Assembly: GCA_963828125.1 (NCBI GenBank) | Contig: CAWHDP010000002.1 | Span: forward strand, 960,001 to 1,024,000 | Source of the DNA: an uncultured Chlamydiae bacterium | GTDB lineage: Bacteria; Chlamydiota; Chlamydiia; Chlamydiales; SM23-39 | Reading direction: 5' to 3' | Length of the DNA stretch: 64,000 nucleotides | In this document: positions 25,669-28,998 of the stretch, one piece after another | Numbering within the stretch: the stretch's first letter is position 1 | How the letters are laid out: each line of letters starts with the position of its first letter | Notes under the pieces: generated by a model | The model's database searches: none | What the model saw: the letters and a program-made list of their open reading frames with translations, nothing else | What the model was told of the DNA's origin: nothing | Program-made: the position numbers and the translations under genes

Positions 25669-25881
25669 GCTTTGGCCTACTCCTGGCAGATTATAATAGT
25701 AGGGACTATTTTGATGCAACTGCTCATAAAACTGAGGTAATCACCCCGAAGCGGGGCCCCGATTACCTCGATTTCATGGGCACTGTTTTTCACCGTCTAA
25801 TCTGTGTTCGTTGAATAAAAAATTTAGGTGATTGTTTTCTAAACATTTGCTATTGTATCCAGCCATACAAGGCATGCACAA

Positions 25882-27738
25882 ATGCAAGATTCCTCAAAAG
25901 TTCAAATTTCCTCTTCTCTTATCGATCAGCTTTCTAACGAAAACTTCCAACTCCGTCAACAAATTGATACAATGACCAATGCCTTGGCTGCACAAAAAGA
26001 ACTGATCCAGCAACTCAAAGATGAAATTGCTCGCCTCAAAGGACAGAAGCCAAAACCGGACATTCCCCCCAATAACCTGGAAGGGAAAAAGAACAAGCCC
26101 GATCTATATAAACGAATTAGCCTCATCGATGTCCACGAGATGCGCGTTTTGTTCATTTCACCCGCGCAATTCACAACGAGTTTTGATGTTTCATTGTCGT
26201 CTCGCGATTTTTTCATAATCACTTCACCTTTGTTGCAAGAACGAACAGTTGAACTTTCTCGATTAGCTAGACTGATGATCAAAAATATTAGGAGAATTGG
26301 AAAACCTGGGCAACCAAGAGGCAAGAAACGTAAAAAGAAAAAAACAGTACTAGAAATCCACACCAAATTGGAAATTCAGCCTGAAAATATTCCGGATGGC
26401 GCTAAATTCAAAGGTTATTGCCATTATACAGTGCAAGACATCCTCCTTAAACCACACAATATCCAATACAAATTGGCTCGATGGGAACTACCTGATGGCA
26501 CTTACGTAACAGGGCAACTCCCTAAAGATATCCATGGGCACTATGGCCCAGAATTGGTGACTTACATCCTTCACCAATACCATGCTTGCCGTGTTACAGA
26601 GCATCTTCTATTAGACCAGCTACGCGCTATCGATATTTTGATTTCCGCAGGCCAACTGAACAATATTTTAATTGAGAACAAGAACCCTTTCATTGAAGAA
26701 GCTGCAGAGCTAATGCTTGCTGCCACAAGTGTAGAAAACCAGGTGCAAGTGGACGATACAGGCGGTCGGCATAATGGGCAAAATCAGTACACAACGGTCA
26801 TAGGGAATCGTTGGTTCAGTATTTTTACAACGACAGAAAGTAAGAGCCGGAAAAATTTTCTCCAATTGCTTCAAAATGGAAAAGAAGAATATGTGATCAA
26901 TCAAGATACCCTGGAATATCTGTCACATGTGAACGTTGCTGAGTATCTGCCTGGCTATGTCTCTCTGTCCTTAAATAGCAAATTTGCAACACTCGCAGAA
27001 TGGGAGCAATTTTTAAGGGAACGTAATGTTACGAAGGAATCAGAAGTTCGTTTTCTCACAGAAGCAGCTTTGTATGCATCTGTGATACAAAATGGAATCT
27101 CACGCGAACTGGGTGTGCATAGTGATGATGCAGGGCAGTTTTATGTATTTCAACATTCGCTATGCTGGATTCATGAAGATAGGCACTATAGAAAGCTCCT
27201 CATGACAACTGACAAGTCTCGATCTGAATTGGAACAAGTCAGAGAGCAAATATGGGATATCTATCAAGACCTTAAAACCTATAAAGAATCACCCTCTCAA
27301 GAAGTTGCAGAGAGCATAAGCAAAAAATTTGATGCCATTTTTCAGCAGAAAACGTCCAGTCCTACCTTGAATCACCAACTGGAGAAAACTCGTGACAAAA
27401 AGCAAGAACTACTTATGGTTCTGCGGAGGCCGGAGACGCCTTTGCATAATAACAGTTCGGAAACATGTGCCCGTGCGGCAAAAATAAAGCTGAAAATTTC
27501 TGGGGGAACTCGTAGTGAAATGGGGCAGAAAGTTAGAGACACCTTTTTAAGTCTAAAACAGACATGCCGAAAACTCGAGATCAATTTTTTGTCCTTTTTA
27601 CAGGACAGAGTACGTGGGAAATATGCGATTCCTCGTTTAGCAACCGTGATTTTTGACCGAGCGCTAGCGGCTGCTGCAGACCCACCCGCACGAAACTCAA
27701 ATGAAGCTGTAGAACATTGTTTGCCTCTCGTTGGGTAA
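25882..27738 (+). CDS. IS66-family transposase
   Basis: N-terminal coiled coil LKDEIARLKG, VDDTG, SDDAGQF, LCWIH, PLHNNSSE, KISGGTRS, TCRKL. Confidence 0.9.
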   Translation: MQDSSKVQISSSLIDQLSNENFQLRQQIDTMTNALAAQKELIQQLKDEIARLKGQKPKPDIPPNNLEGKKNKPDLYKRISLIDVHEMRVLFISPAQFTTSFDVSLSSRDFFIITSPLLQERTVELSRLARLMIKNIRRIGKPGQPRGKKRKKKKTVLEIHTKLEIQPENIPDGAKFKGYCHYTVQDILLKPHNIQYKLARWELPDGTYVTGQLPKDIHGHYGPELVTYILHQYHACRVTEHLLLDQLRAIDILISAGQLNNILIENKNPFIEEAAELMLAATSVENQVQVDDTGGRHNGQNQYTTVIGNRWFSIFTTTESKSRKNFLQLLQNGKEEYVINQDTLEYLSHVNVAEYLPGYVSLSLNSKFATLAEWEQFLRERNVTKESEVRFLTEAALYASVIQNGISRELGVHSDDAGQFYVFQHSLCWIHEDRHYRKLLMTTDKSRSELEQVREQIWDIYQDLKTYKESPSQEVAESISKKFDAIFQQKTSSPTLNHQLEKTRDKKQELLMVLRRPETPLHNNSSETCARAAKIKLKISGGTRSEMGQKVRDTFLSLKQTCRKLEINFLSFLQDRVRGKYAIPRLATVIFDRALAAAADPPARNSNEAVEHCLPLVG

Positions 27739-27828
27739 TTCGCTGCCAGGAGAAATCATATTGCAAGATGCTTGCCTCCTGGGCTAGAATAATCCAGTTT
27801 TAGCAAGCTTTCAGAAGCGAATTAGAAA

Positions 27829-28305
27829 ATGTGTAAATGTAAAACAAGTTGTTCCACATATCGATGCGATTGTCTAAAAAACGGTCAAGGATGTACTGAG
27901 AAATGTCGTTGTGTTAATTGCCATAACCCTCTGAATGGACAAGACACGGAACATCTGGCATTGTGTGCTATACAAAATATTCGTATCGTCAAAGACCTTA
28001 AAGATAAAGAATTATCCAAAGAAATACTACTGCCGTGTGAATGCGAAAGCGTTCCCTTGAAATCCTTGCTGGGAGAATATGACTGTTCTAAATGCCAAGA
28101 AACTTATTGGTTTTCTTTTTGCTGGAACGATGTAGCTGCAGACAATTGTAGTTGGCATTGTGAGATTTGCAAAACATGTAGAGATTGGAGAGAGTGGCAT
28201 TGTGACAAATGCAATAGGTGTACTTATGGTGTGTCACTTCCTTGTGAACATTGCGGCAAAAGGGTCCATATGCAGATTGGTAACCGAGTCCCATTTCTGG
28301 AGTGA
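27829..28305 (+). CDS. Cys-rich zinc-binding protein (Tesmin/TSO1-like CXC domain plus CxxC repeats), IS passenger
   Basis: [55 protein letters not shown]. Confidence 0.75.
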
Positions 28306-28998
28306 TTACCTCAATTTTATGAGCACTTGCATTTTGATTGATGCTAATCATATAAGACCAATGAGAAAGCCCATTCGTAGTAGAACCCGCGTTCATCTGC
28401 ATGACAAATTGATAGCTGCCTTGTAAATTAACAAATGTTCCTATTCCGTTGACCAAATCTGTATTAGAGATAGATCCTGAAGGAATAAACGTTATATAAA
28501 CGGCTCCGCCACTTGTAACTGTACCTAGTATTTTTTTCTGAGTATATGTTGTAGAACCGGAATCGATCACGGCTGTATACGCGTTTCCAAAAAAATAACC
28601 GTCAGCATAATCATCAATCATCCATACCGTTTGATCCGTTACTGGCGTATAGGATGATGGGGAATATTCATAAGCTGGTAAAGTAGACGGGGGTACAATC
28701 CAAATAGTGTTTTTTATTAAATTTTCGAAATTGTTCTGATAATCTTGAGAAAATAGTAAATTGGCAAGAACGATCAAAATCACAGAAATTGTCTTCATAG
28801 CTTTCTCGTTTTAGGATGTCAAATACTCAAAAAATCTCACTCATTCAAATAGTCTCCCCTTTTGGCACGAAGTTGTATTACTGTACTTTCATCTTCAGCA
28901 GCATAGAGTATGATTTCTCCATTTCCTATATATTAGCCCTTAGGTTTCTTTGCTAGAAGAAACATGTTATGAGAAATGTTGAATCTTTTCCAGTCAAA

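Follow-up and report, generated by a model that had tools for sequence, protein, structure and literature searches.

What does a small, very cysteine-rich protein do inside an insertion sequence (IS)? The question is raised by a 64,000-nucleotide (nt) stretch of contig CAWHDP010000002.1 from an uncultured Chlamydiae bacterium. We refer to this whole stretch as the window and use its coordinates throughout; the genome that it comes from is called G000. The window contains an IS66-like element (25716-28330, 2615 bp, between two 8-bp duplications) with a transposase open reading frame (ORF) and a passenger gene of 158 codons. An earlier note, made from the letters of the DNA alone, had described this unit as an IS66-type transporter element with a eukaryote-like CXC zinc-cluster gene, and had proposed that the passenger is a possible nucleomodulin or a transposition accessory. 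Our analysis gives slightly better than an even chance to another answer: the passenger is cargo, namely a small zinc-cluster reader of nucleic acids that stays in the bacterial cell and probably serves in conflicts with foreign DNA.

The passenger protein starts with a CXC domain (residues 2-33), which is followed by a helical linker, overlapping CCHC-type fingers (residues ~70-142) and a 15-residue tail. Residues 2-33 match the nine-ligand consensus published for the CXC superfamily (PMC3447885), which ends in C-x-N. All nine Cys and the signature Asn are present, and Arg12 occupies the position of R543 in MSL2, the only base-reading residue of the MSL2 CXC (PMC4248295). The consensus occurs in 18/18 close relatives. 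A search of GTDB genomes confirmed 117 stretches, and the locus counts given here refer to the best 80 of these; 79 of the 80 family proteins have the consensus together with the Arg that precedes the fourth Cys. Of 70 family proteins checked, 67 have Arg where MSL2 has R543. A profile search matched Tesmin/TSO1/LIN54 with an E value of 2.5e-4. The AlphaFold model of the passenger has a predicted local distance difference test (pLDDT) value of 91. The passenger model overlays the CXC of MSL2 (4rkh; 39 residues, root-mean-square deviation (rmsd) 1.7, Z 2.1) and LIN54 (5fd3; 32 columns, rmsd 0.9, E 2.3). The structure search that the earlier note had proposed for 27829-28305 found these overlays, albeit with low scores, and the CXC zinc-cluster domain that it had recognized is supported. 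A homodimer prediction for the passenger was uninformative (score 0.02).

The C-terminal part contains two HCxxCxxC repeats in 80/80 GTDB family proteins. Overlapping CCHC fingers are known as C-x2-C-xn-HC repeats (PMC6954407). The best structural match of residues 71-143 is ZCCHC4, followed by the DHHC and Pirh2 fingers; all of these matches are weak (Z 3.4-3.7). The CCHC domain of ZCCHC4 contributes to RNA binding (PMC6834594). A fold search in BFVD gave no match at E <= 0.001. Most close relatives stop at CEHCS; the window passenger has lost this usual stop, and its frame runs on for 15 residues within the right end of the element. The conserved Cys, His, Trp and Arg are all intact.

The passenger is predicted to be a small, non-catalytic nucleic-acid reader in the bacterial cytoplasm. 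A Zn3Cys9 CXC of the MSL2 type would place Arg12 in the minor groove of DNA, and the overlapping CCHC stack, together with an invariant Arg/Trp surface (R-D-W-R-E-W-H), could make a second contact with nucleic acid or a partner. The protein would benefit the cell as an accessory, sensor or regulator of defence systems, and mobile vehicles would keep it because of this benefit in conflicts with foreign DNA. That the cell gains from the passenger in defence or mobile-DNA conflicts is the weakest step, about half as probable as the reading as a whole.

With 15% Cys the 24-Cys protein might alternatively be a metal or redox buffer: it would bind Zn or Cd, or else scavenge oxidants, and travel as cargo for stress tolerance. 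Zn3Cys9 clusters occur in metallothioneins too (PMC3447885), and many of the carriers are from sulfidic or anoxic settings. However, neither the passenger nor 68 C-terminal domains matched a metallothionein family in Pfam at E <= 1, and metal-resistance genes do not recur next to the gene. Metallothioneins are short proteins poor in aromatic residues. A specific binding surface is indicated by the invariant Trp, Tyr, Arg and Ser of the passenger family and by the compact fold, which is predicted with confidence (pLDDT 91-95). We consider a buffer function unlikely; the view that this is a metallothionein-like family without a CXC fold, which the earlier note had named as one of two outcomes that would refute it, does not hold.

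Together with its relatives the passenger forms a conserved family of stand-alone prokaryotic proteins, on which purifying selection acts. Among 285 candidates 283 relatives were confirmed, and 746 cluster representatives were found at E <= 0.001. The relatives from GTDB genomes occur in Desulfobacterota, Chloroflexota, Methanosarcinales, Planctomycetota, Bacteroidota and other groups, and are 53-67% identical to the window protein. The nearest named relatives are stand-alone bacterial or archaeal proteins, many of them from anaerobes; one relative, from Desulfonema limicola, has the automatic UniRef label 'CRC domain-containing protein'. Over 15 pairs the nonsynonymous differences (pN 0.08-0.19) were far below the synonymous ones (pS 0.52-0.99). 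A search for longer proteins gave five matches and no recurring prokaryotic fusion. Viral contigs contained 76 pattern matches, none of which was confirmed as a passenger relative; no relative was found in plasmids or in phage records, and no RNA holder of the passenger is listed. Among the papers listed by full-text searches, some of which were aimed directly at prokaryotic CXC or CRC proteins, no title or abstract start describes the family or its capture by mobile elements; ISfinder may already list both elements. Neither the family nor its repeated capture thus turned up in the literature searched, though some relatives are auto-labelled as CRC-domain proteins in databases.

The label 'eukaryote-like' is appropriate for the domain but not for the gene, given these nearest relatives. 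The whole module does occur in longer proteins, four of which are named (Globisporangium ultimum, Porites evermanni, Lophium mytilinum and Ancoracysta twista), and in eukaryote-like proteins it is fused to RING, PH_TRF2_HOY1 or HMG domains. The identity over the whole module to eukaryote-like proteins is 30-44%. In the Atlas a bacterial cluster is listed first, followed by rotifer and ascomycete clusters. We also noted that 17/30 long homologues end in C-x-x-x (P0183, P0205, P0243, P0251, P0161 and P0227 among the carriers), several of them with RING; this end of the eukaryote-like carriers may be a prenylation signal.

The phylogenetic relationship of the homologues, another check proposed in the earlier note, was analyzed in a quick tree of 150 rows and in a careful tree of 57 rows. 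The latter were hand-chosen from the 150, with the longest branches left out, and comprise 35 GTDB, 7 close-relative and 15 eukaryote-like rows. The careful tree supports the clade of the window protein (100/98) but not its position, and gives no direction of transfer between prokaryotes and eukaryotes; a grouping of this clade with the eukaryote-like rows was not rejected in the approximately unbiased test (p-AU 0.49). It is identity and architecture, and not the tree, which suggest that the immediate source of the passenger was prokaryotic.

The start of the 16S gene of G000 has a motif that is a signature of Chlamydiales, so that its bearer is probably chlamydial and hence intracellular. 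This, the fact that the above grouping was not rejected, and the presence of the whole module in eukaryotic proteins with RING, PH_TRF2_HOY1 or HMG domains would suit a nucleomodulin, which the chlamydial symbiont secretes to the nucleus of its eukaryotic host and whose CXC binds chromatin. However, the folded CXC starts at residue 2 and an in-frame stop lies two codons upstream, so that a disordered secretion signal would not fit in at the N-terminus. Furthermore, the family occurs mostly in bacteria and archaea that are not known as symbionts, and in only one other chlamydial genome, where the copy is broken. The nucleomodulin of the earlier note has gained no positive evidence, and we hold it to be the least probable of the explanations considered. 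The passenger is more likely a cargo that acts inside the bacterium than a weapon against a host cell.

The features of the element and its insertion site are listed below.

Features of the passenger-carrying IS66-like element and of the gene that it interrupts (window coordinates).
Feature	Position	Strand	Remarks
Target duplication ATTTTGAT, left copy	25708-25715		8 bp
Left terminal inverted repeat (TIR)	25716-25767	+	29-bp core 25716-25744, imperfect out to 52 bp
Transposase ORF, 618 amino acids (aa)	25882-27738	+	IS66-family, ISBst12-type single-ORF DDE transposase
Spacer, 90 bp	27739-27828	+	sigma-70-like site 27761-27790; in-frame stop two codons ahead of ATG
Passenger gene, 158 aa, 24 Cys	27829-28305	+	Cys-rich ORF between transposase and right end
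Right TIR	28279-28330	-	core 28302-28330; contains passenger stop codon
Target duplication ATTTTGAT, right copy	28331-28338		8 bp
Interrupted gene, 5' part, 153 codons	28339-28798	-	probable exported protein, family not assigned
Interrupted gene, 3' end	25642-25707	-	frame runs on to stop once element is omitted

The passenger is the sole other sense-strand gene in the element, which has no accessory genes of the tnpA/tnpB kind; only 166 bp separate the left end from the start of the transposase. Its stop codon (28303-28305) lies within the core of the right TIR. The two TIRs match at 27/29 bases in the core and at 41/52 over the longer stretch; the 52-bp repeat of the earlier note is real but was slightly overstated. 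A promoter scan, which covers the sigma-70-like site, was at chance level (8 found versus 6.6 +/- 2.5 expected). When the element and one duplication are removed, an unbroken 177-aa minus-strand ORF with a hydrophobic N-terminus results. The only match of this interrupted gene to NCBIfam is weak (E 0.0012, far below cut-off), and no relatives of it were found in 102 other genomes of the taxonomic family. An empty site is suggested by one contig of run X6, which joins 25710 to 28334 and skips 2623 bases, i.e. the element plus one duplication; this contig has 80% likeness and a 38-base side, and could stem from a relative.

The transposase matches Pfam PF03050 with 45.1 bits, above the cut-off of 23.1, and the NCBIfam IS66 model NF033517 with 101.8 bits, below the cut-off of 180. 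Since a relative of the transposase in genome G210 (96.4 bits) also falls below the NCBIfam cut-off, the subgroup is a divergent one. Residues D291/D292, D415, H431 and E527, among them the acidic candidates for catalysis, are invariant in 120/120 aligned rows. The TIRs of most IS66 members start with GTAA. Here they begin with GCAA, and the GCAA pattern was found in 5/5 other genomes checked, four of which were picked for having the transposase and one for having the Cys-rich gene; GCAA ends are a trait of this IS66 subgroup. Together with the TIRs, the 8-bp duplications and the passenger in every full copy, these data bear out the IS66-type transporter element of the earlier note. Its GCAA ends, the duplication that encloses both ORFs, the passenger stop inside the right TIR and the clean split of a gene for a probable secreted protein were likewise seen correctly.

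G000 contains eight full copies of the element, which are 99.9-100% identical and differ at no more than three positions. The Cys-rich ORF is present in 8/8 of them, and five of the eight are flanked by their own 8-bp duplication, each a different 8-mer. The element has been active recently, and transposase and passenger moved as one unit, as had been concluded before from the single insertion. A 72-bp mini-element in the same genome (G000:C2:1098594-1098665) consists of the IS ends alone; it has its own 8-bp duplication, interrupts a 157-aa ORF and is a non-autonomous derivative moved in trans. End-only pairs of ~115 bp occur in G210 and G243 also. At G000:C1:416774-424726 two element copies point apart and flank a 2.7-kb stretch with two other ORFs, which from their appearance we take to be integrase-like and IS110-like.

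The passenger is rare in the phylum of its host: it was found in 2/400 genomes of an order sample, in 2/400 of a phylum sample and in 1/103 of the family (G000 is counted, and the order and phylum samples overlap). The other chlamydial carrier, G134, belongs to a different family and has a 5'-truncated copy with 81-82% identity. The same IS66-type right end follows 45 bp past the stop of this copy and is the sole such match in G134; the window transposase was not found there with this query. Because the G134 copy precedes the same right end, the link between passenger and IS66 is older than the present expansion. A slight hint of a further link is that P0002, one of the closest relatives of the passenger, and P0350, a transposase, both have a longest contig of 2756 bases. 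The concern that no other copy links the passenger to the IS is settled by the G000 copies and by G134.

The rarity of the gene, the truncation in G134 and the loss of the native stop in the window, with 15 extra residues read into the right end, are what one would see if the passenger were a neutral hitchhiker here, functional elsewhere and merely carried along by an expanding IS. This is very unlikely, though a little less so than a nucleomodulin. All conserved Cys, His, Trp and Arg are intact, and the window protein lies in a 20-member clade of intact close relatives. Over 85 codons the comparison with the G134 copy gave rates of nonsynonymous (dN) and synonymous (dS) substitution of 0.09 and 1.01, i.e. 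a dN/dS of ~0.09.

A further alternative is that the passenger serves the element: it might bind the ends, tune expression of the transposase or shield transposing DNA from restriction, and unrelated elements would have recruited it for this purpose. This idea, which matches the accessory role considered in the earlier note, is favored by G134: there, in another chlamydial family, the gene again sits in the same geometry ahead of an IS66 right end. The relatives of the IS66-type element argue otherwise. Matches to the transposase at E <= 1e-30 occur in 26/400 genomes of the order (G000 included, one genome unscored), and no passenger was found within ~1.5 kb at any of 28 non-G000 transposase loci (of 30 loci fetched). 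Four complete related chlamydial elements (1755-1977 bp, GCAA ends) have no passenger, and in these only 31-148 bp lie between the transposase stop and the right end. G210 has 19 TIR matches and several passenger-free copies of 1755 bp. Because related complete elements spread without the passenger, it is not required by the IS66-type element and, judging from these relatives, seems dispensable for transposition. A required accessory role is contradicted; an optional one is conceivable, because an unrelated ISKra4-like lineage has kept the gene as well.

The other vehicles of the family bear on the same alternative. The transposase of the window was found at 0/80 loci near passenger relatives, many of them on short contigs. 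At 8/80 loci the gene is preceded, at a distance of 70-100 bp, by a shared 23-bp left end of the ISKra4-like type. Four of these eight also have a matching right end and form elements of 2263-2286 bp with an ISKra4-like transposase downstream (187-202 bits against NF033572, below the cut-off of 205). The independent count is lower, because three of the loci (L028, L031 and L033) hold almost the same element (95.5-99.7% identical). It was found both in a Desulfobacteraceae genome and on a contig of 2.6 kb that is assigned to Ca. Argoarchaeum; the likeness reflects either transfer between syntrophic partners or mis-binning. In the ISKra4-like lineage the passenger has diverged about as much as the transposase, and both are under purifying selection. 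The gene is upstream at 5/5 places with an intact or long transposase in five genomes, and absent from one short fragment; such a fixed companion again suits a factor that serves the element. In addition, an anti-defence role would be in line with an acidic middle region and with the restriction and BREX genes nearby. On the other side, 72/80 loci have no ISKra4-like end, and the transposases of the two vehicles are not related to each other (best E 0.94); the gene follows the IS66-type one but precedes the ISKra4-like one. All told, a factor in the service of the element is improbable, albeit less so than a metal buffer.

In one case, L017, attC-like sites of 128-129 bp each lie on either side of the gene. 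A strict attC heuristic flagged 0/80 loci near the gene. A looser one flagged 4/80 versus 2/80 in reverse orientation, and only L017 is taken as a cassette because this is near the reverse-orientation level. The idea that the gene is a mobile unit with conserved ends of its own was rejected; flanks are common only within clades.

Genes of defence systems were found next to a number of passenger relatives. At six archaeal loci the gene is directly upstream of pglZ (BREX), at one locus it lies between jetB and jetC (Wadjet), and at others restriction, AbiE, DarT, WYL or toxin-antitoxin genes are near. The neighbour scan covered the nearest ORFs and selected others, in overlapping sets of 145, 108 and 106 proteins out of 619 called. 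Two further arrangements were seen. In L018, L024 and L032 (Anaerolineaceae) a PrimPol-helicase and a pRiA4 ORF3-like gene come before the passenger relative. At L025:5609-5980 and seven other Methanosarcinales loci a 115-123-aa gene without a Pfam family directly precedes the CXC gene (archaeal BREX); it presumably resembles an XPA/MerR-like DNA-binding domain.

Several observations weigh against a nucleic-acid reader with a role in DNA conflicts. By hand count a defence-type gene lies within three ORFs at ~22/80 loci; 8 of these are from one archaeal clade, the figure is uncorrected for background, and at many loci the neighbours are ordinary metabolic genes. None of the PADLOC families (2023 library) was matched by the window protein at E <= 1e-8. 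The match to Pfam TCR (PF03638) is just below the cut-off (21.5 versus 23.5 bits), Foldseek gave no match for the passenger at E <= 0.001, and structural scores are low (Z 2.0-3.7), in the case of the CXC overlays as one would expect of so small a domain. With regard to DNA binding, the family is acidic (median isoelectric point 5.2 over 120 proteins; 6.9 for the window protein) and has a single CXC; LIN54 has a pair, and needs both for high affinity (PMC4974476).

A bolder form of the conflict reading is possible but doubtful. A prokaryotic CXC branch, possibly the source of the eukaryotic module, would then be a portable conflict factor recruited independently by IS66- and ISKra4-type elements and by integron cassettes, a zinc-cluster DNA reader which switches, assists or blocks BREX, restriction or Wadjet, or shields transposing DNA from them. 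CXC domains have mainly been studied as readers of chromatin and promoters in eukaryotes (MSL2, LIN54). Here a compact prokaryotic family keeps the base-reading Arg of MSL2 and is kept by unrelated mobile elements under purifying selection. It offers a small test protein for asking how carriers are served by minimal IS passengers and what the origin of the CXC domain is. Should the passenger prove to modulate defence systems, it would represent a conflict gene of a new kind, borne by an IS.

Three other genes of the window were noted. A 381-aa ORF (29271-30416) has a weak match to a YopT-type cysteine protease (PF03543, 26.5 bits, cut-off 23) and is possibly a secreted protease. An autotransporter with a beta-propeller passenger follows at 30650-32845, and 21512-22675 encodes a helix-turn-helix plus IrrE/ImmA-type metallopeptidase.

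Among known proteins the CXC of MSL2 (PF16682; 4rkh) shares with the passenger the single domain, the nine Cys, the signature Asn and the Arg directly before the fourth Cys. The passenger differs from MSL2 in that its second and third Cys are separated by a shorter loop, that it has a C-terminal CCHC stack and no RING, and that it is a stand-alone prokaryotic protein. The Tesmin/TSO1/LIN54 CRC (PF03638; 5fd3) has a similar Cys spacing and backbone, but a tandem pair instead of one CXC, and an essential minor-groove Tyr instead of the Arg; in LIN54 the change of this Tyr to Arg abolishes binding (PMC4974476). The C-terminus shares C-x2-C-xn-HC repeats with the ZCCHC4, DHHC and Pirh2 fingers; in contrast to these it has no methyltransferase, DHHC catalytic motif or transmembrane part, and the R-D-W-R-E-W-H motif occurs only in the passenger family and its eukaryote-like relatives.

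The second vehicle resembles four ISKra4 elements which were reported with genes of unknown function (PMC3942029) in that an ISKra4-type element holds an extra gene. A word search in part of the supplementary files of that paper, with no comparison of sequences, found no 'cysteine', 'zinc' or 'tesmin'. The first vehicle, a passenger-carrying IS66 element, is of an already known kind. Transporter IS (tIS) are listed for the IS1595 and IS66 families in TnCentral (10.1101/2021.05.26.445724), and the ISBst12 group has a single ORF and, as seen in ISDge4, an 8-bp repeat (PMC12898284). The window element has in common with tIS of this group the single DDE transposase, imperfect TIRs, the 8-bp duplication and an internal passenger. 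It differs from the known IS66-family tIS in its GCAA ends, in its long 618-aa transposase that scores below the NCBIfam cut-off, and in its passenger, a CXC/CCHC zinc protein.

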